From the NCBI GenBank assembly GCA_964016885.1, contig OZ024745.1, forward strand, positions 96,720,001 through 96,784,000: a DNA stretch of 64,000 nt, given 5' to 3'. Source of the stretch: Eledone cirrhosa (taxonomy: Eukaryota). The notes under the pieces are model-generated. The model had not been told where the DNA came from. It was given only the letters and a program-made list of their open reading frames with translations, and ran no database searches. This document shows, one piece after another, positions 2,668 to 55,913 of this stretch; position 1 is the stretch's first letter; every line of letters begins with the position of its first letter. A program made the translations under genes and the position numbers.

Positions 2668-5600
2668 CTAGTGTCGAAAGGACATACTGTAGGGATGTTC
2701 CTCGTTGTCACCCTCAGACAGATGTAGATAGGACACACTAGAGAGAAGTTTCTCGTTGTCACCCTCAGACAGATGTAGATAGGACATACTGGAGAGAAGT
2801 TTCTTGTTGTCACACTCAGACAGATGTAGATAGGACACATTAGAGAGAAGTTTCTTGTTGTCACTCTCAGACAGATGTAGATAGGACATACTGGAGGGAT
2901 GTTCCTCATTGTCATCCTCAGACAGATGTATATAGGACACACTGGAGAGATGTTTCTTGTTGTCACCCTCAGACAGATGTAGATAGGACATACTGGAGGG
3001 ATGTACCTCATTGCCATCCTCAGACAGATGTAGATATGACATACTGGAGGGATGTACCTAATTGCCATCCTCAGACAGATGTAGATAGGACACACTGGAA
3101 AGAAGTTTCTTGTTGTCACCCTCAGACAGATGTAGATAGGACACACTGGAAAGAAGTTCCTTGTTGTCGCCCTCAGACAGATGTAGATAGGACATACTGG
3201 AGGGATGTACCTCATTGTCATCCTCAGACAGATGTAGATAGGACACACTGGAAAGAAGTTTCTTGTTGTCACCCTCAGACAGATGTAGATAGGACACACT
3301 GGAAAGAGGTTTCTTGTTGTCGCCCTCAGACAGATGTAGATAGGACATACTGGAGGGATGTACCTCATTGCCATCCTCAGACAGATGTAGATAGGACACA
3401 CTGGAGGGATGTACCTCATTGCCATCCTCAGACAGATGTAGATAGGACACACTAGAGAGAAGTTTCTCGTTGTCACCCTCAGGCAGATGTAGATAGGACA
3501 TACTGGAGAGAAGTTTCTTGTTGTCACACTCAGACAGATATAGATAGGACACATTAGAGAGATGTTTCTTGTTGTCACCGTCAGACAGATGTAGATAGGA
3601 CATACTGGAGGGATGTTCCTCATTGTCATCCTCAGACAGATGTAGATAGGACACACTGGACGGATGTTCCTCATTGCCATCCTCAGACAGATGTAGATAG
3701 GACACAGTGGAGAGATGTTTCTTGTTGTCACCCTCAGACAGATGTAGATAGAACACACTGGAAAGAAGTTTCTTGTTGTCGCCCTCAGACAGATGTAGAT
3801 ATGACATACTGGAGGGATGTACCTAATTGCCATCCTCAGACAGATGTAGATAGGACACACTGGAAAGAAGTTTCTTGTTGTCACCCTCAGACAGATGTAG
3901 ATAGGACACACTGGAAAGAAATTTCTTGTTGTCGCCCTCAGACAGATGTAGATAGGACATACTGGAGGGATGTACCTCATTGTCATCCTCAGACAGATGT
4001 AGATAGGACACACTGGAAAGAAGTTTCTTGTTGTCACCCTCAGACAGATGTAGATAGGACACACTGGAAAGAGGTTTCTTGTTGTCGCCCTCAGACAGAT
4101 GTAGATAGGACATACAGGAGGGATGTACCTCATTGCCATCCTCAGACAGATGTAGATAGGACACACTGGAGGGATGTTCCTCATTGCCATCCTCAGACAG
4201 ATGTAGATAGGACACACTGGAGAGATGTTTCTTGTTGTCACCCTCAGACAGATGTAGATAGGACACACTGGAAAGAAGTTTCTTGTTGTCGCCCTCAGAC
4301 AGATGTAGATATGACATACTGGAGGGATGTACCTAATTGCCATCCTCAGACAGATGTAGATAGGACACACTGGAAAGAAGTTTCTTGTTGTCACCCTCAG
4401 ACAGATGTAGATAGGACACACTGGAAAGAAGTTTCTTGTTGTCGCCCTCAGACAGATGTAGATAGGACATACTGGAAAGAAGTTTCTTGTTGTCGCCCTC
4501 AGACAGATGTAGATAGGACATACTGGAGGGATGTACCTCATTGTCATCCTCAGACAGATGTAGATAGGACACACTGGAAAGAAGTTTCTTGTTGTCACCC
4601 TCAGACAGATGTAGATAGGACACACTGGAAAGAGGTTTCTTGTTGTCGCCCTCAGACAGATGTAGATAGGACATACTGGAGGGATGTACCTCATTGCCAT
4701 CCTCAGACAGATGTAGATAGGACACACTGGAGGGATGTTCCTCATTGCCATCCTCAGATAGATGTAGATAGGACATAATGGAGGGATGTACCTCATTGCC
4801 ATCCTCAGACAGATGTAGATAGGACACACTGGAGGGATGTTCCTCATTGTCATCCTCAGACAGATGTCGGAATGACACACTGGAAAGATATCTCTCGTTG
4901 TCACCCACAGACAGATGTAGATAGGACACATTAGAGAGTTTTCTCGTTGTCATCCTCAGACAGATGTAGATAGGACACATTTGAGAGATGTACCTCGTTG
5001 ACATCCCCGGACAGATCTAGATAGAACACATTAGAGAGTTTTCTCGTTGTCATCCTCAGACAGATGCAGATAGGACACACTGGGGAGATGTCTCTTGTTG
5101 TCATCCCCAGACAGATGTAGATAGGACACACAAGAGAGAAGTTTCTCGTTGCCATCCTCAGACAGATGCAGATAGGACACACTGGGGAGATGTCTCTCGT
5201 AGTCACCATCAGACAGATGAAGATAGGACACACAGGAGAGAATATTCTCGTTGCCATCCTCAGACATGTGCAAATAGGACACACTGGGGAGATGTCTCTC
5301 GTTGTCATCCCTAGACAGATGTAGATAGGACACGCAGGAGAGAAGTTTCTCGTTGCCATCCTCAGACAGATGCAGATAGGACACACTGGGGAGATGCCTC
5401 TCGTAGTCACCATCAGACAGATGAAGATAGGACACACAGGAGAGAAGTTTCTCGTTGCCATCCTCAGACATGTGCAAATAGGACACACTGGGGAGATGCC
5501 TCTCGTAGTCACCATCAGACAGATGAAGATAGGACACACAGGAGAGAAGTTTCTCGTTGCCATCCTCAGACATGTGCAAATAGGACACACTGGGGAGATG

Positions 5601-6343
5601 TCTCTCGTAATCACCATCAGACAGATGAAGATAGGACACACAGGAGAGAAGTTTCTCGTTGCCATCCTCAGACATGTGCAAATAGGACACACTGGGGAGA
5701 TGCCTCTCGTAGTCACCATCAGACAGATGAAGATAGGACACACAGGAGAGAAGTTTCTCGTTGCCATCCTCAGACATGTGCAAATAGGACACACTGGGGA
5801 GATGCCTCTCGTAGTCACCATCAGACAGATGAAGATAGGACACACAGGAGAGAAGTTTCTCGTTGCCATCCTCAGACATGTGCAAATAGGACACACTGGG
5901 GAGATGCCTCTCGTAGTCACCATCAGACAGATGAAGATAGGACACACAGGAGAGAAGTTTCTCGTTGCCATCCTCAGACATGTGCAGATAGGACACACTG
6001 GGGAGATGCCTCTCGTAGTCACCATCAGACATATGAAGATAGGACACACAGGAGAGAAGTTTCTCGTTGCCATCCTCAGACAGATGAACATAGGACACAC
6101 AGGAGAGAAGTTTCTCGTTGCCATCCTCAGACAGATGAAGATAGGACACACAGGAGAGAAGTTTCTCGTTGCCATCCTCAGACAGATGAACATAGAACAC
6201 ACAGGAGAGAAGTTTCTCGTTGCCATCCTCAGACAGATGCAGATAGGACACACAGGAGAGGTGTTCCTCATTGCCATCCTCGGACAGATGTAGATAGGAC
6301 ACACAGGAGAGGTGTTCCTCATTGCCATCCTCGGACAGATGTA
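2668..6343. repeat. 51-bp minisatellite array (about 72 units) with sub-arrays
   Basis: Unit CCTCAGACAGATGTAGATAGGACACACTGGAAAGAAGTTTCTTGTTGTCAC and variants; 17-aa periodic ORFs in several frames. Confidence 0.95.
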
Positions 6344-6606
6344 GAAACCGTCATTTATTTAAGAGAATGACAGTAGATGTCATCACATTCATATTTTTTT
6401 CTTCTTTCTTTCCAAAGTCATTTGCAATTTATGTGAAGGAAAATAGGTACAGTAGACAATCAACTAATAAACTATGGAACGATATTGGAGACATAATGTA
6501 TTATAGATACAACCTATATCATTTGCAAGATATTTGATTTGGAAATAAAGATTTTAAAATTAAGTGTAATATGCATAATACTAATATATATATATATATA
6601 TATATG

Positions 6607-6751: not shown

Positions 6752-7128
6752 GCAGGTACACATACATATATGTACGCATCAGTTTAGCGGACGCTTATTA
6801 TAGCGCCCGCTTTGTTCGTTTGTAAACAAACTGAACAGCCTGAATTTATGCCGCACGGTGTTAAGGCAACCACGTCACCTTTTTGTTCAACACTGACACA
6901 GGAACGATGTACTAGTTTCAAGCTCGTTAGCTATCATCAGCACCGTATACCCATCTGCCAGATAGTTGAACGTTCGAAAGTATATACTTTCCTTATGAAA
7001 ATTAACGCCTGAGCAGCCTAATTTGCATATCGAGTGAGTTAAATCGGTCAGGCGCACCGAAAACGATGAGTTGTAATAAAATGAAAACGAAATTTCATTT
7101 CTCACTCTTAGTACGGCACTTACTTAAA
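6607..7128 (-). mobile_element. Diverged single copy of the 429-bp HHR-containing element
   Basis: Aligns by eye to the 32322-32750 unit; has an internal (TA)n expansion. Confidence 0.8.
6901..6951 (-). ncRNA. Type I hammerhead ribozyme
   Basis: Minus strand: CGGTG CTGATGA TAGCT-AACG-AGCTT GAA ACTAGT A CATCG; stem I CGGTG/CATCG, palindromic stem III, GUA site. Confidence 0.85.
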
Positions 7129-7219
7129 TGCTAATTTTATGCAATTTTTTTTACTTCCGTTGTCACTCTTGTCTTCATAAAAACAGTGACTATATTTCCA
7201 TTATTTATTTTCAGAATAA

Positions 7220-8240
7220 TTGATTATGAATAACTTTGAACCTCCAAATTTGTGGAAGAGACACGGAGTTCTTCTTGGAATCCGCGCCAGATTTGCAAAT
7301 AAGCAAATTTCAGACTTTCTCAGCGTCAGCAGGAGAATGGTGGAAAAGGTCAGAAAGGAATTGGAAGATTCAGGATTCGACTACGAAGCAACATCAGAGA
7401 GGAAAACACATGATCGACGATCTGACGCCTTCAGAACGCCCGAGTTCGTCGCTGAAGTTCAGGATATCATCAACAATGAACCTAGCAAGTCGATGCGTGC
7501 CATTGCAAGGGAGAAAGGCGTGGATGGAAAGCTCATTAGGCTGGAGGTATATGAAGACATTCGCTACGTTTCATACAAGATGAGGAAAGGACAATTTCTG
7601 TCAAAAGCGATGCACGAAAAGCGACTGAAGCACGCAAAGAAGCTGATCAACAAGTTCAAACATCCACTGAAGCCAGACATGCTGTTGTTTTTCTCCGACG
7701 AGAAAAATTTCTGCCAAGACCAGAAGATCAACTCCCAGAACAACAGGTGGCTCGCTGTCTCATCCAAAGACGTGCCCAGAGTCATGCAGACAAAGTTTCC
7801 AGTGACAACATTGGTCTTAGGTGTCGTCAGTAGTCAAGGTGACGTCATGCCACCTCACTTCTTCCCTGATGGCCTCAAGCTGAACACCGATGGCTACATC
7901 CGCGTTCTGAGCGAAGTAGTAAAGCCCTGGATCGATCAGGTAGCTGCAGGTAAGCCGTACGTGTGGCAGCAAGACTCAGCGCCCTGCCATACCAACCGAA
8001 AGACCCAAGCCTGGCTGTCAGAGAACTTCGTCGACCACACTTCACCTGACAGCTGGCCTCCCAGCTAACCTGACTGCAACCCCCTCGACTTTTTTGTGTG
8101 GGGCGCAGTGCAACGAGACACCAACAGATCTAGCTGCAATACGAAAAACGATCTGAAGGCCAGGATCATAAGTGCCTTTAGGGGCCTAAGTCGGGGGACA
8201 GTGACGAGGGCCTGTAGCCGGTTCCGAGGCCGCCTTGAGT
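7220..8240 (+). pseudogene. Tc1/mariner superfamily DD37D (maT) transposase with a premature stop
   Basis: HTH-like N-terminus; FFSDEKNF, WQQDSAPCH and WPPS*PDCNPLDFFVWG; 37 residues between the 2nd and 3rd D. Confidence 0.9.
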
Positions 8241-11595: not shown

Positions 11596-14500
11596 GTGGA
11601 CGTGGACAAACCGCAGCGTGACATATAGATCGTATTTAGACAGGTTCTTTATCAGAGAGAGAGAGACAAGAAGATGTTAAACTGTCCACAAAAGCACATG
11701 GTTGCCTATTCTGACCACAAACTAGTCATCTGCAGAGTCAACCGTGATAGAATACATAGACAAGGACTCGGATACTGGAAGCTGAACGTGTCGCTACCGA
11801 CACGTAAAGCCTACAGAGAACGGATAAGTAGATTAGTTAAGCAACAGTTGACCGGAGCCATCGTCAACAATAGGTAGTGGTACTCTCTTAAGAGAGCAAT
11901 TAGAGTAGAGTTGATAGCTTTTAGCAAAGATCTAGCCTTTGAGAAAAACAAAACAGAAACAGAACTATAGCCAAGGTAGAGAAGGCGCTTAGGAGTGGCA
12001 ACGCAGCTAGAGTGCTAGCAACGAGAACGGCACTGGACTATTTCTTCGATGCGAAACGCGAAGGCTGCGGAGTCAGAAGTAAATCACGTGCTTTAGGAAA
12101 CGAAGGAGAAAAAGCTGTAAGCTGGGCCCGAGCGGCAGAGGCAAAAAGTGGCAACAAGTCCACGATTCGGTCTTTGAAAGACCAAAACGAACGCGTGCTA
12201 CTTGACACCAAGCGGGTGTGCACGGCCTTTCAGCGGCACTTTGCGCAACTGTTCGAGCAGAGCGACGGTGCGCCGAACGGGGCAATGGACTTCGGTTCAT
12301 ACCTCGACGGCCTGTCGCGTCTCTCGAGCATGGACGCCGAGTTCTTCGAAAGACTGATCACAACAACTGAAATACGGGACGCTCTGGGCCGCTGCGGGAA
12401 ACGCAATTCACCCGGTCTAGATGGTCTACCCTATGAGTTTTACATAGGCATAATGGACATCTTCTCTGGCATCCTCAAAGCCGTCTACTACAACTGGAAG
12501 CAGAACGGGAGAATTCCCAGTTCTGCAGGCAGGGCCGTAGTAACGCTGATCAGGAAAGACGAGAACAATGGGGACGAACTAAGCAACTTTAGGCCCATAT
12601 CTCTGCTCAACACAGAGTTAAAGATTTTGGCCAAGGTGTTAGCAACGAGGCTGGCACTTGTCGTTGAGAACCTGGTATGGAAAACGCAAACGTGTGCAAT
12701 CCCGACCAGGTCCATACACGACAACCTCCACCTCATGCGATACATCATAGAGAGGGTGGGGTGTAAACCTGGCTTCGGCGGGGCTCTGATCAATTTAGAT
12801 CAGTCTAAGGCGTTCGATAGGGTCGACCATCGATACTTGGAAGCGGTTCTCAAGGCGGCCGGTTTCGGACCCGTCTTCAGAGGCTGGATCAAAGCAATGC
12901 ACATCAACATCTGCTCGACGGTCAAGGTAAACTGCTACCTATCGGAGCCGTTCGCAATCACGCGTTCCATCCGATAGGGAAGCCGTCTCTCCCCCATTCT
13001 GTACGTACTGACTCTAGAGCCACTACTGCGGAAGTTGGAGTTTCTGCAGAGCATCCCGTTAGAACCAGGACTGCGGAAAGCGGCGTCGGCTTATGCCGAC
13101 AACATGACAATAATGGTGTCGGAAACCTCGGAAATCGGGGAAATCGGCAACTTACTGCAGGAATACGATAGGCTCACAGGAGCAAAACTGAACTCGGACA
13201 ATTCTGTCGGTTTGCAACTCGGAACGTGGAGAGGCAAACCGATGCCGTCCAACAGTGTCGTCGGACGCTGGACGGAAATTGCTCTGGGTCTGGTTCGGTC
13301 CGGAAATCCAGGTATAGAAAAACTGAAACGAGGTCACGACCAAGGTATTCGCGCTCACCCAGAAATGTGCAGAGTGCAAACTACCCTTGAAAGGTCGAGC
13401 GGAGGTGGCGAACACTTTCATAGCATCCGTCATCTACTACCGCTTGACCGTCGTGCCTTGTCACTGTGAATACCTCTCCAAGATGGAACGCATGTTCTTC
13501 TAGTTACTTTGGAATAAGCTGGCTCCACTGGTGAGTAGATCCGTCTGCTCTCAGCACCCTTCCAACGGAGGGCTGGGAATGCCGTGGCTGATGATGCGCA
13601 AACATGCGCAAACACGCGCTGAGGCTACGGCATCTCCAGGTATTCCTTACCGAACAACCGGTGTGGGTCCCGTTTGTGAAACAGGCCTTCCCGCAACTTA
13701 TCTCGCTGACGGAGCTTCAACCCTGGGTCAAATGGAGACCGAAGAAAATGGACGCCTGGCACATTGAATGCGCTCAGGCGCTCACAGTCCTCTTTCAAGC
13801 GGGCACAGCAATCAGTGGAGACTCCACTTCGACATTCTATAGAGGGTTAGTACGTTAAAAGCGCAACGACGTGCTCGGAGAGACTCTGGGCGTCGAAGAC
13901 GGTAGGACTTTCCGCTCGGGACCCATGGACAACTTCCAGAGGTCCCTGGCCTGGCAGTGCTACCGAGGAGCTCTACCAGTTCAAAACAAGATCTACAGGC
14001 ACGGACAGGGATCCTTCCAAGAGGACGTATCCAAGATGCGAGCAGGACAGTGAAACAGTCCTGCACGCAATTGTACACTGCCCGGACTTAACCGACCCGT
14101 GGAGCTACGCAGAACAACTACTGTCACGTATGGGACAAATCCAGTTGACTGCCGAGTCCATAGTAAGCATTAAACCGCCAACTTCTTTCAAAAACGAAAG
14201 AAAGGCGGTTTTCCTCTGTATAGTGGCTATGGTAAAAGAGATTATATGGTGGACGAGATTGAGAGGACTGAGGACAGCTACCTTTCTCTTCAGACAACAA
14301 CTCATTCCCTTCTTAAGGTCCACTTTAGAAGGAGAATCAGAATGGAGAGAGAGGAACTGCACCCCAGTAAATTTACTGAAAGGTGGGTGAATGTAACAAA
14401 AATGGCCCGACTGATTGGGCCTTCTCTGAATATAAACCTGTAGGTTGAAGATGAGAGCAAAATGAGGAAAGGAGCACTTGCACAACACGCTCCTGGAGTG

Positions 14501-14684
14501 GAGGGTTGTTCTATCTACGGATTATTAAACAACCCATTTTGGGGCCTCCCCCTATTGGGGATTTCGATTGTCATATTTGTTTCAATATTTTTACACGATT
14601 GTATGTAAAATCCCCGGCATGTGTCTTTGTTTTGTCCCCTTTTCTTGTGCGCCCTTGTGGCTAATAAAGAAATATATCTATCTG
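11596..14684 (+). mobile_element. 5'-truncated Tx1/L1-clade LINE (disrupted ORF2 plus 3' UTR)
   Basis: APE end (SDHKLV, GYWKLN), RT (SPGLDGLPYEFY, FRPISLLNTELKILAK, LDQSKAFDRVDH, YADN), GGLGMP motif; stops and frameshifts. Confidence 0.92.
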
Positions 14685-15900
14685 CATGCTCTCCCAGTTC
14701 CTGTGGAAGAAGCAGGCTCCACTGGTGAGGAGATCCGTCTGCTGTCAACACCCTTCCAATGGAGGGATGGGCATGCCGTGGCTAATGATGCGCAAACATG
14801 CACTGAGGCTACGGCATCTCCTATTCCTCATCGACCAACCGGTGTGGGCACCGTTTGTGAGACAGGCCTTCCCACAACTTGTCTCGCTGGTGGAGCTGCA
14901 GTCCTGGGTGAAGCGAAGACCGAAGAAGATGGGCGCCTGGCACATTGAATGCGCCCAGGCGCTCACAGCCCTCTGTCAGGCGGGCACAGCAATCAGTGGA
15001 GACTCCACTTCGACATTCTATAGAGGGTTAGTATGTTAAAAGCGCGACAACGTGCTCGGAGAGACTCTGGGCGTTGAAGACGACGAGCTCACCAGTCTGT
15101 TCGGTAGGACTTTCCGCCCGGGACCTATGGACAACTTCCAGAGGTCCCTGGCCTGGCAGTGCTACCCAGGAGTTCTACACGTTCGAGATAAGATCTACAG
15201 GCACGGACGTCCCGGCAGGGATCCTTCCAAGAGGACGTGTCCAAGATGCGAGCAGGACATTGAAACCGTCCTGCACGCAATTGTACACTACCCGAGCGTC
15301 AGCTACCTGTGGAATTATGCAGAACAACTGCTGTCGCATATGGGACAAATGCAGTTGACTGCCGAGTCCATAGTAAGCATCCAATCGCCAGCCTCTTTCA
15401 AAAACGAAAGAGAGGCGGTTTTCCTCTGTACAGGGGCTATGGTGAAAGGGGTTATATGGTGGACGAGATTGAGAGGACTGAGGACAGATGCCTTTCTCTC
15501 CGGACAACAGTTGATTCCCTTCTTTAAGTATCACTTTAGAAAGAGAATCAGAGTGGAGGGAGAGGCACTGCACCCCAGTAAATTTACTGAAAGGTGGGTG
15601 AATGTGGCGAAAATGGACCGAGTGATTGGGCCTTCTCTGTTTATAAGCCTGTAGTTTAAAGAAGAGAGCAAAGGGAAGAAGGTAGCACTTGCACAACACG
15701 CTCCTGAAGTTGAGGGTTGTTATATCGACGGGGTATTAAACAACCCATTTGTAACACCTCCCCGCTATTGGGGATTTCGATTGTTATAATTGTTTGTTTT
15801 ATATTTTTTACACCATTGTATGTAAAATACCCGGCATGTGTCTTTATTTTGTCCCTTTTTCTTGTGCGCCCTTGTGGCTAATAAAGAAATATATCTATCT
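14685..15900 (+). mobile_element. Second, shorter Tx1/L1-clade LINE copy in tandem
   Basis: Paralogous to 13490-14684; CPRC..ETVLHAIVH zinc knuckle; same 3' end with AATAAA and (TATC)n. Confidence 0.9.
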
Positions 15901-18806: not shown

Positions 18807-18867
<61 letters not shown>

Positions 18868-18880
18868 CGAAGGAAGTGTG

Positions 18881-20178
18881 GCAATACACTTTATGCTTAA
18901 TTAAAAGCATTTTGAAGACCGTAAGCTATTGTTTTAAAGTAGTGTCAAATTCACTCACTTTGATCTCAGCAAACAGGGGAGATAAGCCGACAAGACTTGT
19001 TTCGCTTTGGTTGAAGCTTATCAAGGCCAACTACCCCACCTGTTTACTGAGATCATTGATGTTATATTCTTATAGAAATCTAGTAAATAATCAGGAGCTG
19101 ATTATGAATTTGTCACTACTTTAAAACAATAGCTTACGGTCTTCAAAATGCTTTTAATTAAGCATAAAGTGTATTGCAAAATACATTATATATACATCCA
19201 TATATATATTGCTATTTCAGAGCTCCAATTCTAATTTTTAATTTCTGCCTGACTAACAACCGCTCTGCATAATCAGCTCCTGATTATTTACTAGATTTCT
19301 ATAAGAATATAACATCAATGATCTCAGTAAACAGGTGGGGTAGTTGGCCTTGATAAGCTTCAACCAAAGCGAAACAAGTCTTGTCGGCTTATCTCCCCTG
19401 TTTGCTGAGATCAAAGTGAATGAATTTGTCACTACTTTAAAATAATAGCTTACGGTCTTCAAAATGCTTTTAATTAAGCATAAAGTGTATTGCAAAATAC
19501 ATTATATATACATCCATATATATATATTGCTATTTCAGAGCTCCAATTCTAATTTTTAATTTCTGCCTGACCAACAACCGCTCTGCATAATCAGCTCCTG
19601 ATTATTTACTAGATTTCTATAAGAATATAACATCAATGATCTCAGTAAACAGGTGGGGTAGTTGGCCTTGATAAGCTTCAACCAAAGCGAAACAAGTCTT
19701 GTCGGCTTATCTCCCCTGTTTGCTGAGATCAAAGTGAGTGAATTTGTCACTACTTTAAAACAATAGCTTACGGTCTTCAAAATGCTTTTAATTAAGCATA
19801 AAGTGTATTGCAAAATACATTATATATACATCCATATATATATTGCTATTTCAGAGCTCCAATTCTAATTTTTAATTTCTGCCTGACCAACAACCGCTCT
19901 GCATAATCAGCTCCTGATTATTTACTAGATTTCTATAAGAATATAACATCAATGATCTCAGTAAACAGGTGGGGTAGTTGGCCTTGATAAGCTTCAACCA
20001 AAGCGAAACAAGTCTTGTCGGCTTATCTCCCCTGTTTGCTGAGATCAAAGTGAGTGAATTTGTCACTACTTTAAAACAATAGCTTACGGTCTTCAAAATG
20101 CTTTTAATTAAGCATAAAGTGTATTTCAAAATACATTATATATACATCCATATATATATTGCTATTTCAGAGCTCCAA

Positions 20179-20185
<7 letters not shown>
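18881..20185 (+). repeat. Tandem array of 316-318-bp HHR-containing units with a 5' inverted copy (retrozyme/pLTR-like)
   Basis: The HHR hairpin recurs at 19323, 19641 and 19957 on +; inverted partial copy at 18881-19105; flanked by (TA)n. Confidence 0.9.
19323..19409 (+). ncRNA. Type I hammerhead ribozyme, U3-A8 variant (copies at 19641 and 19957; 18965-19051 on minus)
   Basis: GCC TTGATAA GCTT-CAACCA-AAGC GAA ACAAG-T-CTTGT C GGC; stem I extended by CTCAGTAAACAGG/CCTGTTTGCTGAG; GUC site. Confidence 0.8.
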
Positions 20186-20204
<19 letters not shown>

Positions 20205-20214
<10 letters not shown>

Positions 20215-23016
20215 TACAAATATTAATAAAATAGATGTTCTTTTGATCAATAAAATTTTATTATACATATTTCGGAGGTACAACAGTACGTCCTCATCAG
20301 ACAAAATACAATGATACATGACATACACTGAGATATTAAAGGGTTAAAGATTTAATCAAGGTAGTGATTAACCAAAGAGAAAATTCAACATTTATACCCT
20401 AATAATGAGAAAATGCGAAAACGTAATAGATTCAATAGAGAATGTGTGAGTAAGAAAAACGTTGCTTAATGTGACAGCTATAGAGATTTTAAAATGTAGG
20501 ATACTACAAGTTATGGTTATCTAGGAAAACATCTCATGAATTATTCCTGTCCATGAGGGCCGCTGAAAGAGGATTTAAAGAGAGGGAAAGATAAAGGGGA
20601 GTAATATATGCAGAAAGAGATTTTTTCCCAAAAGCTAAACGGTTAAGTTTCAAAATATTTCATTTATGTTATTTTAAGGGTGAAGAATCAAGATTTTAGG
20701 TCTTTAAAAAAGTTGCTGGTTATTTATATTTATTAATTTTATAAATTCTATAAGTGTGTTAACATTTCTAAACTTCTGAATTTTATGAGGATAATATTTA
20801 AAGGATTTACCTGGCCAGCGAAAGGAAAATTTACACTGTTGAATATTTTCCTAAATGTAAAATTTAATGAAGATTACCTATAAAAATGTCAACATTTTCG
20901 GTATGTAAAGCTTATGAAGTACTTATTGTTAGAAATATTTAAATAACGATTATGTATATAGAGATATATTAATGAGCCAGTATATTTTAGGTAAATGATA
21001 ACGAATATAAAATAATAGATTGAAGCATGCTAAAGTTAAATAGATACCTATATATAAAAGGGTGTAAATGCATGAATTATTCACAGTTCAAAATAAATAA
21101 TAATCTACAAATTTAGAAGTTATCTAAAAATTATGTATATAGAGATACAAGGAGGTATATATAGATATATATTAAGTATTAGTGATACAGTATACTTTAG
21201 GTAATTTTAGATTGTAATCTTATATAATAGATTTCAACGTGTTACAGTTAAATACATACATATATATAAGAAAAATAATAATAAATGCATGGATAATTCA
21301 GAGTTCAAAATAAGGTCCGTAATAATTTATAGTTTGGATATTTGCTCTATATTTGAATCATGGATATAAAATACGGTAGGTATATTTAAAAACTTACAAA
21401 AGATAATTACATACATATTATAAATAAAAAATAAAAAATGTAAACACATGAATGATTCACAGTTAAAAATAAGTTCCGTAAAAATATACGGGTTGGATAT
21501 TTAAACTAAAATTTTAAACTTAGATAGGAAAATAAAGATAGAGAAATAATGGTATGGATCAAAGTTAATAATTTTATGTTATGTATATCAACGTATCAGC
21601 GTGTTATTGAACAAGTGTCATTCATTCGAGCGTTATTTCTTCTATAGACAGTTATAAGATAATGCAATATTAAAGGCCATTAATGTTTTTCCCTGTTGAT
21701 TATATACGTCTAAACCAAGTTTTTGATGGTTTAGTGTTTCTTTCTCTTTTTTTATAGTTTTGTGGGAGGCTAAGTATGTAGACGTAGCTTTATGAAGGCA
21801 ACTAGAGAATAATTCACTTTTTTTGTTAATTAGGGTCTCATAGTTATTAATAATCAACAGGGTCTCCATTGTACAGAGCGCGCAGTTATTTGATATACTA
21901 GAGTTACGGTAAACTCCACAATTCCGAAGTTTTGTTAAAAAAAATGGAGTATTTTAAATTCCTCTCTTTTAATGACCATATGAGCTGTGATAAAGAAGTG
22001 GATGATTTCCTCTTGGAGTTCGAGAATGAGTATTTATGGTTCGCAAATCTGGCTTTAAATGTAAAAGAAGTCGATCCTATGTAGTTGTATGTGTTGTGAT
22101 CAGTTTTTACGGTGCATTTATAAACCAAATTACTATCTAGACAATTATTTTGCAAAGGGCAGTCAGTTTTATTTCTACAATTACATTTTGGTTTAGTATC
22201 ATTTATGTTAACTCTATTATTAAGATCATTATGCTGGTTTTGTTTTAGGATTTTAGTGTTTAATTTGGCAATGTTTTGGGCCATGTTCATAGTTGTAGAA
22301 TACGAGAATTTAATGGTGTGTCTATTAAAAATGGAATGGTATTTATGTTGAGTAGGGAAAGAGGTGTCCAAAGCGTCAAAGAATAATTTTGCAATTGGTG
22401 TTCTAACTGCGACCGAAGCAGAGGGGGGGGGGGAACCATACGACTGATTTAGTTCTAGTTCTTTTCCTCGATTTATTTGGCGTATGGGTGTTTGAATTAT
22501 AATTATTAGAGTTTCTCTTATATATGTTATTATTTTTATCAAGATTAATACTTGGATTATTATTATCTACATATTCTATATTATTCACATATCCTGCTCT
22601 TTTTAACGCGTTGTTGTAGTATTCAACGTTTTCATCAAATATAGCTTTATTGGCTGATATTTTATTAATTCGTTTTTGCACACTATTTACTATAGCTTTT
22701 TTTTTACAGATTTAGGGTGATTGGAATGGTTACTAACATAGTTTAAGTTTTCATTGGGCTTATGAAAAGGGTAATAAAAGCCAGTGTTTAAGTTAAACGT
22801 AACGTCTAGGAAATTAACTATTTTGGTACCATTTTCTACTTCTAACTTAAGGTCATACATTTTAAAGAATTATATTATACTTTTCTTTACTCTATTTAGT
22901 TCAATATTGTATTTTAATATTAATAACTCTGGAAAAATATTTTTTCTGTAGAGTTCTTCCAATCTACTGTAACACTCATTCTTTGATATACTCATTGAAT
23001 CTTGTTTAACTCTTTA

Positions 23017-24683: not shown

Positions 24684-24952
24684 TTAGAAAATATATAGCT
24701 TTCACCGTATTTTTAACTAAAGGAATGTTAGCTTGATAACGGGGTTTAGAACCCTCAGATAAATGGAAAAAGATGAGTATTGACGTACATGGGAGTCGAA
24801 CCCACATCTGTGGTTATCGCGACCACAGATGTGGGTTCGACTCCCATGTACGTCAATACTCATCTTTTTCCATTTATCTGAGGGTTCTAAACCCCGTTAT
24901 CAAGCTAACATTCCTTTAGTTAAAAATACGGTGAAAGCTATATATTTTCTAA
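24684..24952. repeat. Perfect palindrome (about 131-bp arms) centred on a tRNA-like sequence
   Basis: Arms read as exact reverse complements around a 7-nt loop; GTGGGTTCGACTCCCAT T-arm/B-box motif. Confidence 0.85.
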
Positions 24953-26232: not shown

Positions 26233-27700
26233 TATTGTTATACTTTGGGAGGGTGATGTTGCCAATAAGAAACACACGCACCAGTTGCTTTCACTTCAAT
26301 TTATTATTATAAATTTATAAATGTATAAATTTCCGGTTGGTTGGTTGGTTCCACAACCAGATGATTGTTTATATATTGTCAAAGTTCTTTCATCTCACAT
26401 TCTGTGACCTCTTCAGTGACTGGGGATTCTTTTCTTTGTTTTTGTGCCTCTCCTTTGTTCTGTCCTACGCCATCTTGTTTTTGTGTGTGTTGTGTGCTTA
26501 GTTTGTGCATATGTTACATCCGGGTGTTTGTGTGTGTTTATATTTGTTTATTTATTTGTTTATTTACATGTTACTGGTTGGTTGTTTGTTCTATGTGCGT
26601 GTGTGTTTTCATTTTGTCCTTAATTGTAAGTTGTGATGTTGCTGTTCCATTCATGTTTTCTATTTAATTTTGGTTGGAGTTCATTTATATTTATTGCCTC
26701 TGTGATTTGTCTAAATATTGCGTTCTTTTCTGTGTGTAGATTCTATTTTTATTTCTATGTTCTCTAATTTACCCTTGTGTTCTATTTTAGCATATTGGTA
26801 GAGTACAGATGATTCTTTACTATCTTGAAGGTCTCGCCAGTGTTCATTTACCCTTTTCAAAGACCTCCCTGTATAGATAAGAAATGTAAAATCTGTAAAT
26901 TAAGCCCCCATATTAACTGTAAAACTAGAAATGTAGTATATAGCATAATATTACTGAAGGATAATGTAGAGATAATAATATAGTGTACATAGGTGAGACA
27001 GCTCGTAGTATAGGGGAACGGATAAATGAACACTGATGAGACCTTCAAGATTGTAAAGAATCATCTGTACTCTACCAACATGCTAAAATAGAACATAAGG
27101 GTAAATTAGAGAACATAGAAATAAAAATAGAATCTACACACAGAAAAGAACGCAATATTTAGACAAATCACAGAGGCAATAAATATAAATGAACTCCAAC
27201 CAAAATTAAATAGAAAACATGAATGGAACAGCAACATCACAACTTACAATTAAGGACAAAATGAAAACACACAAGCACATAGAACAAACAACCAACCAGT
27301 AACATGTAAATAAACAAATAAATAAACAAATAAATAAACAAATATAAACACACACAGACACCCGGATGTAACACATGCACAAACTAAGCACACAACACAC
27401 ACAAAAACGAGATGGTGTAGGACAGAACAAAGGAGAGGCACAAAAATAAAGAAAAGAATCCCCAGTCACTGAAGAAGTCACAGAATGTGTGACGAAAGAA
27501 CTTTGACAATATATAAACAATCATCTGGTTGTGGAACCAACCAACCAACCGGAAATTTATAAATTTATAAATTTATAAATTTATTATAATAAATTGAAGT
27601 GAAAGCAACTGGTGTGTGTGTTTCTTATTGGCAACATGACCCTTCCAAAGTATAACAATATCGGTTTCAACACACGTTTTCAAATAAAGAATCTTGCTAA
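26233..27700. mobile_element. PLE 3' fragment (GIY-YIG end plus pLTR) as a 1.4-kb inverted duplication
   Basis: The + arm from about 26850 matches the linker/GIY-YIG/3' UTR of the PLE at 43645-45472; 26233-26855 is its reverse complement; HHRs at 27465-27507 (+) and 26378-26420 (-). Confidence 0.88.
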
Positions 27701-32302: not shown

Positions 32303-32321
32303 TATATATATATATATATAA

Positions 32322-34208
32322 GTATGTATACCTACATACATATATGTATACAGACGTACAGTAGTATGTATATATATGTACATACATGCACACATATATA
32401 TATGTACGTATGGATTCACCGAACATTTATTATTATGCTCGGTGTGTTTGTAAACAAAAATCCCGAATTAAGCCGTACAGTGTCTAGCAACCATCGTTGC
32501 TCATTTGTTCAACACTGACAAAGGAATGCTGTACTAGTTTCAAGCTTATTAGCTATCGTCAGCAACGTATACCTTCCTGCCAGATGATTGAACGTCTGAA
32601 AGTATATACTTTCCTTCTGCATATTAACGGCTAAGCAGCCTCATTTACATATCGAGTGAGTTAATCGGCCGGGGTACTGAAAACGATAAACGGAAAAACT
32701 GAAACGAAATTTCATTTCTCACTCTTAGTACGGCTGTTACTTAAATATAAGTATGTATACATACATATATGTATACAGACGTACAATAGTATGTATATAT
32801 ATATACATACATGCACACATATATATATATATGTACGTATGGATTCACCGAACATTTATTATTATGCTCGGTGTGTTTGTAAACAAAAATTCCGAATTAA
32901 GCCGTACAGTGTCTAGCAACCATCGTTGCTCATTTGTTCAACACTGACAAAGGAATGCTGTACTAGTTTCAAGCTTATTAGCTATCGTCAGCAACGTATA
33001 CCTTCCTGCCAGATGATTGAACGTCTGAAAGTATATACTTTCCTTCTGCATATTAACGGCTAAGCAGCCTCATTTACATATCGAGTGAGTTAATCGGCCG
33101 GGGTACCGAAAACGATAAACGGAAAAAATGAAACGAAATTTCATTTCTCACTCTTAGTACGGCTGTTACTTAAATATAAGTATGTATACATACATATATG
33201 TATACAGACGTACAATAGTATGTATATATATATACATACATGCACACATATATATATATGTACGTATGGATTCACCGAACATTTATTATTATGCTCGGTG
33301 TGTTTGTAAACAAACATCCCGAATTAAGCCGTACAGTGTCTAGCAACCATCGTTGCTCATTTGTCCAACACTGACAAAGGAACGCTGTACTAGTTTCAAG
33401 CTTATTATCGTCAGCAACGTATACCTTCCTGCCAGATGATTGAACGTCTGAAAGTATATACTTTCCTTATGCATATTAACGGCTGAGCAGCCTAATTTGC
33501 ATATCGAGTGAGTTAATCGGCCGGGGTACCAAATGAGCAACGATGGTTGCTAAGCACTGTACGGCTTAATTCGGGATGTTTGTTTACAAACACACCGAGC
33601 ATAATAATAAATGTTCGGTGAATCCATACGTACATATATATATATGTGTGTGCATGTATGTATATATATACATACTACTGTACGTCTGTATACATATATG
33701 TATGTACGTATACATACTTATATTTAAGTAACAGCCGTACTAAGAGTGTGAAATGAAATTTCGTTTCATTTTTTCCGTTTATCGTTTTCGGTACCCCGGC
33801 CGATTAACTCACTCAATATGAAAATTAGGCTGCTCAGTCGTTAATATGCATAAGGAAAGTATATACTTTCAGACGTTCAATCATTTGGCAGGAAGGTATA
33901 CGTTGCTGACGATAGCTAATAAGCTTGAAACTAGTATAGCGTTCCTTTATCAGTGTTGAACAAATGAGCAACGATGGTTGCTAGACACTGTACGGCTTAA
34001 TTCGGGATGTTTGCTTACAAACACACCGAGCATAATAATAAATGTTCGGTGAATTCATGCGTACATATATATATGTGTGCATGTATGTATATATGTATAT
34101 ACATACTACTGTACATCTGTATACATATATGTATGTACGTATACATACTTATATTTAAGTAACAGCCGTACTAAGAGTGAGAAATGAAATTTCGTTTCAT
34201 TTTTTCCG
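32322..34208. repeat. Tandem array of 429-bp HHR-containing units with an inverted block
   Basis: Units start at 32322, 32751 and 33180; orientation flips at 33531; HHRs at 32523, 32952, 33379 (minus) and 33891 (plus). Confidence 0.9.
33891..33945 (+). ncRNA. Type I hammerhead ribozyme
   Basis: GGAAGGTATACGTTG CTGACGA TAGCT-AATA-AGCTT GAA ACTAGT A TAGCGTTCC. Confidence 0.85.
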
Positions 34209-34933
34209 TATATCTCTATCTCTCTATATATATATACACACACGCGAAGAGAGGGAGGGAGAGAAAGAGGGTGGGAGTGATGTAGAAAGAGATGTGTTCG
34301 TGAGTGTATGTAAGGCTTTAGACACTAATATGGAGATGAACTGATGAAATTGCCTTACATCCTGAAAGGGATTAAGAATGCTGGGCGCCTATAACTGTCA
34401 AAATGAACGAATTATAGATTGAATGTATAACAGAATAAAGGAATAAATGAATTATTTGACAAAGTGAGAATTTATCTGAAGAAGATATTTATTTATAGGC
34501 CTATATTTTTATCTCTAGAGACAGATGAACAGTTTTACAAATAGCATAGCTAGTAATACAAATTTCAGAAGTGTTATATATGCATGCAATTCCTCAAATG
34601 AAATGTTAAAATTGGACTAAAGAAAAATCTCTGTTACGCAATTAAAATACTATCATAGCTTTAATGTATTGGATATAGGGAAATATATAAGTATAGAAAT
34701 TATATTCTGTATAGAACAGTTGGAAGTTAGATTACATTTTGTAATGCACGCGAAAACTGATTCAGTACAGTTATTCTATTTTGGCGAAATTCCACGCTAT
34801 ATTAATTAAAACTGGTAAGGTGTAAATATTATGGACAATAGATGTACGTATATGTGTGATGCATTTACGCGGGCACGTGCACACACATGCACATTGCACA
34901 TAGAAACATACTCACAGACTCACGTGCACACGC

Positions 34934-39738: not shown

Positions 39739-39825
39739 AAAAGTTCTATTTAAATTGTTGGGATACAACAAGCAAATATTTTTATAACTGATATAAAGCA
39801 CTCAACAAATAATTGGAGTAAAAAT

Positions 39826-40075
39826 ACGATATTAACAAATAGAAAGTATATTTATAAAACCATATTTATTTCATTATACATATTTCAGACTATTCGGGAG
39901 CTTCCAACAGTAATGGTTGCATTCTTTAAGGGTATGTCAATATTTATTTATAAAACTGCTCTATATTATATTTTATCTGATGAAAGCACACCATAATATA
40001 ACTTGGTGTCCTTGAAATATGTATAATGAAATAAATATGGTTTTATAAATATAGTTTCCATTTGTTAATATCGTA
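39826..40075 (+). mobile_element. Small fold-back pLTR remnant with an HHR at 39969-40033
   Basis: About 60-bp inverted arms; TATTTTAT CTGATGA AAGCACACCA..TGGTGTCCTT GAA ATATGTAT A ATGAAATA. Confidence 0.72.
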
Positions 40076-40216
40076 TATATATATATATATATATATACAG
40101 ATAAATCCACCAATTAATGGTAGGGTCTAAACCCTATGAAGAACTCAATGTAATCCGTATGTAGAAGATGTCGTGAAGCAAAGTTTATTTTCGCCAAAAG
40201 TAGATCGGACCTAACT

Positions 40217-42454
40217 ATGAATGAAATTAAGATCGTCACACATGCCAGACAAACTCTACTGGACTTCCAAGACGAGTATTTGACTAGAAATACATATAGT
40301 GATTTATATGATATTACTATGGGCTCGATGGATTCCGCCCAGGTTACGGACCTTGTGGGCCTCTTTCTCCTATATAATTTAAATTCATCTTTTCCCCATC
40401 TCAAAGGGGGTCTATATCGCGATGACTGTCTTCTTCTATCTAACAATCTTAGTCTGTCAGCAATTGAAATAAATAAAAAGCATATTAGGAAATTCCTCAA
40501 AAATTACTATAATCTTACAGTTACTTTTGAAAATAGCACTAAAATGGTCAATTTACTCGACATCACTTTAGACCTATCAACAGGCACTTACCAACCCTAC
40601 CACAAACCAAACCAAAACCTCCATTATATACACTCACTATCTAACCACCCTAGTTCCATACTAAAAAATCTAGTGTACAATATCTCACTCAGATTATCTA
40701 AATTAACATCTAATGAAGAAATATTCTATAAAAATGAACCTTATTATAATGAGGCGTTAACTAGAAGTGGCTACAAGGATAACATATTTTACATACCTAA
40801 CACCATGAATACCCCTAGCATACAGCCAAGAATAGCAAACAAACACCGTAGAAAACACCAAAAAGTTAGTGCCAGCAATGAAACACCGAAAAACCTAGAT
40901 CCTACCATTACTCCCAATATCCACATTAACACGAATGACACAAATTCTCTAAAAATCATCAATCCTAACGATTCCGAATATTTCTATAACTTACTTAATA
41001 TTATTACTACAAACCATATGAAAACACCTAACTCCACTACTCTTAAAAAAGCAGTTAATAATAACATCTTATATCTTAATTCTCACAATAAATCTAATGA
41101 TGTATCACCTATTTCATTGAACCTTCAACCTAACCAAACTACATCCTTACAATCCAAAAAACCAGAGAAACATATCCGAACTACTGTAGATAACAAGAAT
41201 AATACCAACATTCCAGGTCCTATCAATAATGCTCCATTAATAAAACTCCCGATATCATCTATAAATCAAACAAAAAGCAATAAATCAAAAACTAATACAA
41301 TTCAAAAATCTACTAAACAATTAGTTCACACCCATAATAACAATCATAATATTATAATTTCATCTGATAACAATATGTACCCTCAAACTTCTATACATAC
41401 CCAATATAATAAGAGGAAACCTTTTAGAAACCATAAAAGAAATGTAACATGGTATAACGTTCCATTCAACTTGCAAACTATGGGCCAAATCCCTAAAAAA
41501 ATATTTACTATTCTCGATAAGCATTTCCTACCTAACCACAAATGCCATCAAATCTTAAACAGAAATAGAGTAAAATGTTCTTACTCCACATCGAGCAATA
41601 TACAACAAAAAATAAATGCATATAACATCTATAAATGTAAAAAAGCTCCATGTATACCACACACAATAGCACACCACACACAAGATAACTATGGTAATAC
41701 GACAACGCATAACCAGAATATTACTACATACCCCCCTGCTACATCCGCTCACTCACCTCACCAGCACAATACAGCAGCCTACAACCAACTACCATCTTCC
41801 TCATCCTTAATAGGGACTAAGAATTACATACCCAATCTAACCAATAGCTTCCAAAACAACCATGATTCTATAAACGTTATATCCAGTATAATTTCACCAA
41901 CTAACAACCCTTCGGGCCGTGACCACCCAACCGTAAACCCTTCTCTCCCAAATAAAAGGGTAGACACAAATACTAGCACTATTATTGAGAATACAGATAG
42001 CACATCTGAAACCCTATATGCAAACGGTTGTAATTGTAGAATAAAAGATAATTGCCCCTTAAATGGAAATTGCTTAATTAATAATATAGTATTTAAATGT
42101 GTAATCACCACTAAGGACTCTAATCAATTCTATATTGGATCCACTTCTAATCCGTTTAAATCGAGATTGTATGCACACACCCACAGTTTCCGAAACACAA
42201 AATTAGCTAATACCACTTCTTTAGCAGAAGCAGTTAATAATTGTAAAAAGAGGAATATTAAATATAACCTAACTTGGAAGATTCTTAAGAGAGCCATTTC
42301 TTATCAGGGCAATAGAAAAGAGTGTAGACTGTGTTCCCAATAAATTTTTGAAATTACTAAATCGAAGGACACTCTATTAAATAAAAGACAAGAATTAATT
42401 ATAGTATGCAACCATAAAATTAGAAGAACATTCAAATATTATAAATACAACTAA
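40217..42454 (+). pseudogene. Naiad-type PLE ORF (RT C-terminal half plus GIY-YIG), 5'-truncated, one premature TAA near the end
   Basis: YDITMGSMDSAQVTDLVG, GLYRDD, LLDITLDL..YHKPN..SNHP, CNC..CPL..C, VFKC..YIGST, CRLC; the frame continues after the stop at 42343 to LLNKRQELIIVCNH. Confidence 0.92.
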
Positions 42455-43644: not shown

Positions 43645-45472
43645 GTTATACTTTGGGAGGGTCATGTTGCCAATAAGAAACACACGCACCAGTTGCTTTC
43701 ACTTCAATTTATTATATATTTATAAATTTATAAATTTACAAATCTACAAACTTATAAATTTCTGGTTGGTTGGTTCCACAACCAGATAGTTGTTTATATA
43801 TAGTCATAGTCCTTTCGTCACACACTCTGTGACCTCTTCAGTGACTGGGGATTCCTTTCTTTGTTTCTGTGCCTTTCCTTTCTTCTATCCTACGCCATTT
43901 TGTTTCTGTGTGTGTGTTGTGTGCTCAGTTTGCGCATGCGCCACACCCGGGTGTCTGTGTGTGTTTGTGTTCATTTATCTATTTGTTTATTTATTTATTT
44001 ATTGTTGGTTGGTTGTTTGTTCTATGTGTGTGTGTGTTTTCATTTTGTCCTGTGTGTGTTTTCATTTTGTCCTTAATTGTAAGTTGTGATGTTGCTGTTC
44101 CACTCATATTTTCTATTTAATTTTGGTTGTAATTCTTTTATGCTTACTGCCTCTGTAATTTGCCTAAACATTGCATCTTTTCTGTGTGTGGATTCTATTT
44201 TTATTTCTATGTTCTCTAATCTACCCCTGTGTTCTATCTTAGCATGTTGGTAGAGCACAGATGATTCTTTATTATCTTGAAGGTCTCGCCAGTGTTCATT
44301 TATTCGTTCCCCTATACTACGAGCTGTCTCACCTATGTACACTATATTTTTGTTTCTACATTGTCCTTCAGTACATCTTATGCTATACACTACATTTCTA
44401 GTTTTACAGTTAATATGGGGGCTTATTTTACAGGTTATACATTTCTTATCTATACATGAGGGTCTTTGGAACGGGTATGTCTTGCTAATAAGTGCTTTTA
44501 CGGAGGTACCTGGTCTTTCTACTATCTTAATATTGAGTTTATGTTTATTTAAAGTAGACTTAAACAAAAACTTAAAGAACAATTAGAAGACAGCTTAACC
44601 CTGATAATGTACTCCCGCTACGTAGATGATATAAACATCGTAGTTAAGACACCCCCACTAAAGAACAGTCAGGAACTAGAGAAAAACACAATGGAAAGCA
44701 TCCAGCAAATAGCAAACTCCATCCACCAGAGCATTAGAGTTACTATAGACTACCCAAGTAGACACCCCAACCATCGATTACCTGTACTAGACACAGAGCT
44801 CTGGTTAGATACCATTAACAACCAAAAACAAATCCTCCATTCCCATTATGCCAAACCCATGACTTCCAAACATCTGATCCACCGAAACTCGGCCATTTCG
44901 GACCATACCAAAATCAACATACTGATTGCGGATTTGGTACGGGTGATGAGAAATGTGTCCCGCATGTGCAACCCCGAAGAACTAGAGAGACACATACAAC
45001 ACTTCATCCACCGTATGCAGTTCTCTGGCTACAATCAGAGAGATAGAATCAGAGTGTATAGAGGAGCCAGAACCAAATGGGAAAAAATGGTAAATAATGA
45101 CATAAATAGAACCTGCCCCTTGTATAGGAGCAAATTTTGGAATAGAATAGAAAGAACTAGGAACAAGGCCAATAGAATAAACTCATGGTATGATAGCAAT
45201 AAATACCAGAGTGTAATGTTCATCAATACAACCCCTAGAGGCGAACTAGCCTACAAATTTAGAAGGGCCCTAAATAAACATAAACTCAATATTAAGATAG
45301 TAGAAAGACCAGGTACCTCCGTAAAAACACTTATTAGCAAGACATACCCGTTCCAAAGACCCTCATGTATAGATAAGAAATGTATAACCTGTAAAATAAG
45401 CCCCCATATTAACTGTAAAACTAGAAATGTAGTGTATAGCATAAGATGTACTGAAGGACAATGTAGAAACAA
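43645..45472. mobile_element. Penelope-like element with internal inversion (RT part on +, GIY-YIG and pLTR on -)
   Basis: 44607-45472 (+): YSRYVDD, LPVLDTELW; 44073-44552 (-): VVYSIRC..YIGETARSIGERINEH; linker present in both orientations; HHR at 43802-43846 (-). Confidence 0.9.
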
Positions 45473-45529
45473 AGGTGGTGATGGTTCACTTCCAGTCTTG
45501 GCAGTCTGGAATTGAATCATCAGCACAGT

Positions 45530-50779: not shown

Positions 50780-51408
50780 ACATTCACTCACCTACACACA
50801 TACACATACACACACATACTGGCATATTCACTCACATACACACATATACATATACACACATACTGGCATATTCACTCACATACACACATATACATACACA
50901 CACATACTGGCATATTCACTCACATACACACATATACATATACACACATACTGGCATATTCACTCACATACACACATATACATACACACACATACTGGCA
51001 TATTCACTCACATACACACATATACATATACACACATACTGGCATATTCACTCACATACACACACATACATACACACACATACTGGCATATTCACTCACA
51101 TACACACATATACATATACACACATACTGGCATATTCACTCACATACACACACATACATACACACACATACTGGCATATTCACTCACATACACACATATA
51201 CATATACACACATACTGGCATATTCACTCACATACACACACATACATACACACACATACTGGCATATTCACTCACATACACACATATACATATACACACA
51301 TACTGGCATATTCACTCACATACACACATATACATATACACACATACTGGCATATTCACTCACATACACATATATACATATACACACACACATACTGGCA
51401 TATTCAAT
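50780..51408. repeat. 42-bp minisatellite
   Basis: CACACATACTGGCATATTCACTCACATACACACATATACATA, about 15 units. Confidence 0.92.
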
Positions 51409-55400: not shown

Positions 55401-55913
55401 GCATTAAATTTTCCTGCCGTCGACTGCCCTTACGCTGCTCTTCCCTATCCACCCCTAATCCACCCACGCGGTCACCAGTGTCGTTGTATAGACCGTGTCC
55501 ACGAGGGATCGCTGTCGCTTTCCCCTCACGAAGACTTCCACCACGAGCAGCGCCTCTACAGTAGGTCCCCTTGGATCGTTTCCCTGGTCGCAGTTAGTAG
55601 CGATGTGGCCTGGTCGCTTACACCGGTAGCATATTATTTCCGGCCTTGACTCTCTACAGTCTCTCGTCATGTGCGGGCCCTGGCACCTAAAACAGCGACC
55701 TCTAAACGTTCGCGGTCGACCGCGTGCCGTGGTTGCCTCCCTTTCACCATTTCGCTGCCAGCTGTCTTGAGCCTCTGTAGTTGCTATCGCCGCGAAACTC
55801 TTCTTGGCATTTTCTGCTATGATGCGGGCTTGCTCCACCAGTGAACGCATCTCCATTTCTTTATAACCCGGGACTTGCTGCAGTTTCACCGCTATTGTCG
55901 TCTGGAAATCCAT
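52470..55913 (-). mobile_element. Gypsy-type LTR retrotransposon, 5'-truncated and frameshifted
   Basis: Two gag CCHC knuckles, protease (LVDT), RT (VRPVLDFRELN, DVKSAY, YIDD), RNase H (CDAS, INVAEL, RTDS, NRADALTR), integrase (HH-CC, AVD, LMDN, SGNGIVER); PPT-like AGGGGGGAG then TG at about 52736 starting the putative 3' LTR. Confidence 0.92.
53017..54435 (-). CDS. RNase H-integrase portion of Gypsy pol (open frame within a disrupted element)
   Basis: 472-aa ORF with RNase H and rve DDE motifs. Confidence 0.75.
   Translation of the reverse strand: MVFQRGNEVPELVPSMSRREFFSVCGMLVGHYPIVGWLWTACSYVKRRAGGVTWSDRVGERTVAMMQEIVERVKADDPVPGRWYVPKSQSGTVWCDASSIALGVTLEIGGVEVEDAAWLRKKDDCNHINVAELDAVLRGVNLALKWGLRTIEIRTDSATVVGWVRSVLTSEKRGRTRGAAEMLIKRRLGTLGELATEFDLRLSVVFVPSEKNRADALTRVKKAWMEAPEEVEEEIAAVCRLTESDLKGLHDMHHTGVDRSLFLAKRIDSDVNRHNVQRVVRGCVRCQSIDLAPGVNETGSLPVDRDWKRLAVDVTHYRQGTYLSMVDCGPVRMAIWREMKTGTAEEIMRTLREVFLERGPVDELLMDNSAAFRSEVLREMLDGWKVDRFFRAAYRPSGNGIVERHHRTIKAMAEWDHISPMEAVFWYNMSPRVGQVEESVPLRAVFRYEWRHPCTPPQRSVGRENAFVQVGE

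Follow-up and report, generated by a model that had tools for sequence, protein, structure and literature searches.

Metazoan non-LTR retrozymes are tandem repeats with units of 150-450 bp, a GC content under 50% and a type I hammerhead ribozyme, and they have been described as widespread and species-specific, mussels included (PMC7229834). A dimer-on, monomer-off logic was described for metazoan type I hammerheads (PMC4209133), and dimer action has been shown for axolotl retrozymes, whose monomers were circularised by RtcB in vitro (PMC7229834). According to a 2020 review, retrozyme repeats show no motif pointing to a helper enzyme (PMC7761336). A 2026 preprint derives retrozymes from pseudo-LTRs belonging to Penelope-like elements (PLEs) and reports that one of nine predicted Xenopus retrozyme dimers cleaved in vitro (bioRxiv 10.64898/2026.07.22.740005). 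An adjacent inverted 5′-truncated copy, a tail and (TA)n targeting have been described for PLEs, and almost all families of the Hydra clade insert in (TA)n (PMC8557442).

Several natural hammerheads are reported to have the C3-G8 pair of the core replaced by U3-A8, a covariation described as active in vitro (PMC3088659); the original prediction for the locus studied here had also recognised it as a covariant. A U3-A8 descriptor returned about 1,300 minimal motifs in Schistosoma mansoni, and the supplement to that study places UUGAUAA and UUGAAAA cores among the motifs of this species (PMC4209133). The U3-A8 core is an already published variant with no hidden novelty. Our literature search, in which few subscription papers or supplements were covered, returned no cephalopod retrozyme, no U3-A8 tandem retrozyme and no retrozyme with an inverted arm.

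Here, we analyzed a block of repeats within a 64-kb stretch of DNA (the window) from a probable mollusc. We consider it likely that this ORF-free U3-A8 tandem is a non-LTR retrozyme, predicted to cut as a dimer and to form a circle that is likely copied into (TA)n by the reverse transcriptase of a PLE. The element is built from known parts and is not a new kind of system.

Results

An ORF-free tandem array joined to an inverted arm

The block comprises 3.4 head-to-tail units of 316, 318, 316 and 131 nt, which TRF reports as a repeat of period 316 with 98% matches over 19105-20185, preceded by an inverted arm that is 99-100% complementary to the array (Table 1). Arm and array are joined head to head by their 5′ ends, which overlap by 2 nt (TG), so that both outer ends of the block are 3′ ends of the element. 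Over 1,307 nt, the five copies (the inverted arm and units 1-4) differ by five substitutions and one AT insertion; all six differences are private, a pattern that fits copies made together. A (TA)n tract flanks the block on either side, and the 14-nt tail next to the left tract had no second copy within the window. Inside the block, there was no ORF with an RT plus GIY-YIG joined to the repeat, and ARAGORN found no tRNA-derived head in the element.

The near-identical tandem units, the inverted partial copy at the left end and the lack of an ORF that had been claimed from the sequence are all borne out. The proposed monomer length of about 317 nt divides into predicted monomers of 318 and 316 nt. 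The block was also said to lie in (TA)n, which is true of both flanks, with the provisos that the 14-nt tail precedes the arm and that the right (TA)13 is shared with an adjoining PLE.

Table 1 Coordinates of the element, its predicted products and its immediate flanks within the window
Feature	Position	Strand	Basis
(TA)20, left target microsatellite	18827-18866		TRF
14-nt tail separating (TA)20 and the inverted arm	18867-18880		
Inverted partial copy, 226 nt, with one hammerhead (core 19024-18989)	18881-19106	-	
Unit 1, 316 nt	19105-19420	+	
Unit 2, 318 nt, one extra AT	19421-19738	+	
Unit 3, 316 nt, majority sequence	19739-20054	+	
Partial unit 4, 131 nt; sense 3′ end 164 nt beyond the last cleavage site, into (TA)n	20055-20185	+	
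Hammerhead 1, including the long helix I (core 19350-19385)	19319-19413	+	
Hammerhead 2: U3 19668, A8 19673, helix II 19675-19688, helix III 19692-19702, C17 19703	19637-19731	+	
Hammerhead 3; core 19984-20019	19953-20047	+	
Predicted 316-nt monomer, cleavage site to cleavage site; circular fold z = -5.6	19704-20019	+	Folding
Other predicted monomer, 318 nt	19386-19703	+	
(TA)13, right target microsatellite, common to the element and the adjoining PLE	20184-20209		TRF
Decayed Hydra-type PLE, separate from the element, tail to tail	20210-23016	-	CxCX5C linker, GIY-YIG-type region

Each full unit carries a U3-A8 type I hammerhead

Every full unit, like the inverted arm, contains a type I hammerhead whose core reads UUGAUAA (U3-A8). 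The motif combines a 4-bp helix II, GAAA, helix III (ACAAG-U-CUUGU) and a GUC site with a helix I in which roughly six positions lead through an internal loop into a 17-bp distal stem; in keeping with the type I core rule, N3-UGA-N-N8-A / GAAA / UH, positions 3 and 8 are paired, three helices are formed and helix I is open. U3 lies at 19350, 19668 and 19984 (+) and at 19024 (-), and cleavage is predicted after C17 at 19385, 19703 and 20019 (+) and at 18989 (-), coordinates that derive from the motif. None of 200 shuffled sequences folded as well as the 106-nt hairpin (z = -6.9).

A pattern scan of the window returned five U3-A8 and 11 C3-G8 motifs and none with other 3-8 pairs, the means over 60 shuffles being 0.05, 0.03 and 0.18, respectively; four of the five U3-A8 motifs are copies of the element. 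With the Rfam model HH9, which was built on another family, each of the four hammerheads scored 24.6 bits (E = 0.006), which falls short of the model's gathering score (52). The complete type I fold with a UUGAUAA core proposed for the unit is found in every full unit, with HH9 aligning all four copies. The further expectation that canonical CUGANGA searches would miss it holds for a strict pattern, whereas HH9 detects it below threshold.

Non-LTR retrozymes can be defined as tandems of 150-450-bp units, at least two of them with a complete type I hammerhead, no coding capacity and a GC content under 50%. The block has three such hammerheads in tandem, a longest Met-started frame of 31 aa and a GC content of 34%. 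The description of the locus as retrozyme-like is supported: the tandem unit lacks an ORF and bears a U3-A8 hammerhead of type I.

A second, unrelated U3-A8 hammerhead-like motif, with UUGAAAA, a palindromic helix III (ACCGGU) and a 4-bp helix I, occurs at 62510-62539 (+). Its inverted copy lies head to head with it at 62431-62402 (-) in a region (62325-62615) that ends in (TA)36; Rfam gave no match for the UUGAAAA motif there.

Folding predicts a switch between monomer and dimer

For a single unit, the active fold is less stable by 6.2 kcal/mol than an inactive one that pairs the core with helix III. The hammerhead that had been proposed is present, but the minimum-energy fold of a single unit is not the active ribozyme. 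For two units, the double hammerhead reaches -130.6 kcal/mol, compared with -118.5 kcal/mol for two monomeric hammerheads and a minimum of -132.8 kcal/mol, energies that leave tertiary contacts out. When natural variants of relatives are introduced, the double hammerhead becomes the minimum-energy dimer fold, and inactive monomer folds stay 1.3-5.3 kcal/mol below the active one. Folding thus predicts that the monomer is inactive and that the double hammerhead is favoured in dimers.

A conserved inactive monomer helix was considered as well and rejected, as that helix is lost with the relatives' variants.

The insertion has the anatomy of a PLE insertion

The block displays the hallmarks of PLE insertions, namely an inverted 5′-truncated copy, a tail and a microsatellite target. 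Head-to-head pairs also occur elsewhere in the window, at 26375-27510, 43800-45515 and 62325-62615, with copies about 85-99% alike. The inverted arm and (TA)n target match unrelated PLE insertions in the window, which points to mobilisation by a PLE, as the original prediction had noted for metazoan non-LTR retrozymes. At its two 3′ ends, the element extends 108 and 164 nt beyond a cleavage site; the template was therefore not a linear RNA ending at that site, and a circle or an uncut multimer fits.

PLE fragments at 20210-23016 (-) and 40154-42340 (+) carry the Hydra CxCX5C linker, and the fragment at 43800-45515 carries a CX4CX2C linker of Neptune type, both clade names being a reading of linker motifs rather than of a tree. 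For the adjoining fragment at 20210-23016, the clade assignment combines the CxCX5C motif with a match to the 40154-42340 ORF; a homolog search with this fragment found nothing, and Pfam gave no family. The fragment contains a minimal C3-G8 hammerhead at 20300-20262. Apart from the common (TA)13, it has no sequence match to the element and is thus a separate insertion; more generally, no sequence match was found between the unit and the PLEs of the window. Among candidate helpers, a PLE that targets (TA)n and is of Hydra or Neptune type is the likeliest; the window contains both types.

The frame at 40154-42340 encodes 729 aa with a long low-complexity linker and belongs to a decayed PLE at about 39750-42400 (+), while the Neptune-type fragments at 43800-45515 and 26375-27510 are about 85% alike as loci. 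C3-G8 type I motifs are located at 20262-20300, 26416, 27469, 28734, 39977, 43841, 45564, 45969, 46481, 59751 and 62771, several of the eleven at the ends of PLE fragments.

A 429-bp tandem (2.8 units) at 32313-34214 likewise has an inverted arm attached to it, about 1.6 units long, and an older dispersed copy at 6818-7129 is 81% alike. Neither a hammerhead (pattern scan) nor another Rfam ribozyme was found in this repeat, and since its layout is the same, layout alone is no proof of a ribozyme-made circle.

The remainder of the window holds minisatellites at 2672-6345 (period 51, 72 copies), 50782-51406 (period 44) and 60171-60835 (period 46), a LINE-like remnant at 11943-15654 and a remnant resembling an RT with zf-RVT at 56371-57279. 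We take the remnant at 7220-8068 to resemble a Tc1/mariner transposase, and that at 53017-55913 presumably resembles a Gypsy-type LTR element. The best named protein matches of other elements in the window were to Argonauta hians (61%) and Octopus bimaculoides (55%), which makes an octopod the likely host. Overlapping tRNA-like folds on both strands at 24780-24856 (ARAGORN) are probably a repeat-derived hairpin, and whole-window Rfam miRNA matches (best 150 of 195) were set aside as microsatellite-driven.

Relatives show compensatory change in helix III

Fourteen of 24 listed sequence runs, from 11 studies, have words in common with one unit; RNA runs were absent from the list, which has no bearing on expression. 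Four of the fourteen (X1, X3, X6 and X17), with the contig run of organism B set aside, were compared with the majority unit 19545-19860 at 80% likeness, yielding 43 matching contigs in X1, 1,500 in X3 and 6 in X6 (organisms A, C and D); summed contig depths in these runs do not equal copy numbers. X17 consists of raw Hi-C reads, of which about 1 in 100 were sampled, and 0 reads matched. Individual inspection covered 23 of 1,560 matching pieces. Candidate relatives among metagenome contigs (17-mer scan, 118 loci) were rejected as chance matches, none being alike beyond 42 nt.

For relatives in X1, X3 and X6, 35 changes at 31 positions are listed. No listed change falls on the 13 core positions, an invariance that is not significant when taken alone (p = 0.26), and UUGAUAA is also read in loose ends of X1 and X3. 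In helix III, A19695U and U19699A change together in one contig of X6, and in X3 they are found in 11 and 9 contigs, respectively, at equal depth; they form a compensatory transversion pair that preserves the quasi-palindrome. In helix I, X1 and X3 each contain G19638A as well as C19730U. Nine changes affect paired positions: four keep the pair, three are compensated and two break it. The one-sided stem changes are transitions, for which chance pair-keeping is 54%, giving p = 0.31 under that null, compared with p = 0.003 under an all-substitution null. Firm covariation thus appears limited to one transversion pair, in helix III. The check for covariation proposed with the original prediction accordingly gave the helix III pair and a helix I pair, but the remaining changes were not significant. 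The family had also been called young, which describes this insertion only, as the relatives range down to the 80% cut-off.

In X3, the depth of the 45-nt stretch of the unit at 19776-19820 is about ten times that of the hammerhead. The stretch also recurs in sister sequences whose helix I differs; it may be a conserved cis element.

These findings bear on the alternative that survives best, itself improbable, in which the unit is a PLE-mobilised non-autonomous repeat with a slow or silent hammerhead and no circle, the tandem being due either to linear read-through RNA or to an insertion of 1.4 units that then grew by unequal crossing-over. Such a repeat would accord with the inactive lowest-energy fold of the monomer, with the 429-bp repeat of the same layout and no recognisable ribozyme, and with 3′ ends that both lie past the cleavage site, although ends away from that site also fit a circular template. 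The 2026 preprint models local amplification, and eight of its nine elements did not cleave (bioRxiv 10.64898/2026.07.22.740005), a success rate of one in nine that counts against assuming cleavage here. On the other hand, helix III covaries with its quasi-palindrome preserved, the double hammerhead lies near the energy minimum, and neighbouring units share no difference.

The unit is closed on itself and circularly permuted

Contigs with relatives span every position of the unit. Three of them continue across the point corresponding to 19551/19552, where the array stops: two from X1, one exact and the other diverged, and one of 383 nt from X6. The X6 copy, one unit long, has both its ends near 19727-19732 and unrelated flanks. 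The unit is therefore closed on itself, with copies that are circularly permuted. At most 7 in 100 matched records run on into unlike sequence, and no upstream ORF was recognisable among the 14 of 109 loose ends inspected. Permanent attachment to an autonomous PLE ORF, named at the outset as evidence for an ordinary pseudo-LTR, was not seen in these 14 loose ends. A closed, permuted unit argues, within the same 14 of 109 loose ends, against locus-specific truncation of an ORF-bearing element. Judged by these sequences, the unit behaves as a closed ORF-free circle and not as the truncated end of a protein-coding PLE.

Next in standing, and also improbable, is the reading that this closure speaks against: the unit would belong to an autonomous PLE located elsewhere in the genome, as its pseudo-LTR (3′ end), and the locus would be a severely 5′-truncated partial tandem with an inverted arm. 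The would-be truncation joint is the same 19551/19552 that is read through in X1 and X6, diverged copy included; copies end at different places, with no upstream-ORF-like sequence in the 14 loose ends; and the 4-bp helix II and looped long helix I are those of a canonical ribozyme, whereas the PLEs of the window carry minimal motifs. In favour of this reading are the layout of the block, which is that of PLE insertions, and the U3-A8 cores and palindromic helix III reported in PLE hammerheads (PMC4209133); moreover, 24 of 57 Xenopus retrozyme families are end-homologous to 22 known repeats, 21 of them PLEs (bioRxiv 10.64898/2026.07.22.740005).

Near-identical copies between microsatellites are difficult to assemble, but private differences in every copy but one and diverged head-to-head pairs (about 85-99% alike) at other positions in the window make a fold-back or assembly artefact very improbable as the origin of either the inverted arm or the array.

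Discussion

Returning to the non-LTR retrozyme that we favour, we propose that in a multimeric transcript neighbouring ribozymes would pair via the 11-nt quasi-palindromic helix III. In the resulting double hammerhead, two copies would contribute to each ribozyme; cleavage at both sites would set free a single 316-nt monomer, and a lone monomer would drop into the inactive fold, protecting the circle. By analogy with known retrozymes, the repeat would be transcribed and a host RNA ligase would ligate the monomers. The anatomy of the insertion suggests that target-primed, more-than-unit reverse transcription could have produced the 3.4-unit arm and that a second priming event on the other strand could have produced the inverted arm. 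Self-cleavage, circles and expression of the element are all predictions of this model.

A bolder reading, a viroid-like 316-nt RNA circle that is now spreading in several species and whose U3-A8 double-hammerhead switch would cut in multimers only and stay locked in the monomer, is unlikely. It derives from pieces, found in two organisms with different labels, that lack any difference over 132-137 nt, and from a third organism's 265 contigs at a likeness of 99% or above. If this were true, head-to-head (TA)n insertions would be direct genomic footprints of rolling-circle copying, and Hydra- or Neptune-type Penelope enzymes would be named as the helper of animal retrozymes.

The anatomy of the insertion, with its inverted arm and (TA)n, bears on which enzyme mobilises animal retrozymes, and an ORF-free hammerhead tandem with a PLE-type inverted arm and a (TA)n target is a signature that can be counted genome-wide. 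The element also provides a natural, compact ribozyme of U3-A8 type, predicted to be off in monomers and on in dimers. Our results suggest that U3-A8 families escape the ribozyme counts made for cephalopod-like genomes.

Compared with the metazoan non-LTR retrozymes of coral, mussel and axolotl (Cervera and de la Pena 2020, PMC7229834), the element is likewise a short, low-GC, ORF-free tandem with a type I hammerhead per unit, a self-paired predicted circle and PLEs in the same genome. Axolotl retrozymes cleave best as dimers, whereas dimer action here is predicted by folding. The element differs from them in its U3-A8 core and in a helix III of 4-5 bp (the 11-nt quasi-palindrome) instead of 1-2 bp, as well as in its inverted 5′ arm and (TA)n target, neither of which is mentioned in the main text of that study. 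The pseudo-LTR hammerheads of the Schistosoma mansoni PLE Cercyon share the UUGAUAA core, a palindromic helix III and predicted dimer action; they are minimal, mostly single and tied to an RT/EN ORF, whereas those described here are canonical-like, in tandem and ORF-free (PMC4209133). Insertions of Hydra, Neptune and Naiad PLEs and of the non-autonomous Chlamys MRC1 have the same partial tandems, inverted 5′-truncated copy, tail and microsatellite target (PMC8557442), but the element encodes no protein, has a tail of 14 nt rather than 30-40 nt, and had no 3′ sequence found in common with an autonomous family. Finally, the Xenopus retrozymes derived from pseudo-LTRs are tandem type I hammerhead repeats of similar size that are also linked to PLEs; there, the link was drawn from homology and co-occurrence in mostly vertebrate genomes, whereas here it comes from the anatomy of an insertion in a probable mollusc (bioRxiv 10.64898/2026.07.22.740005).
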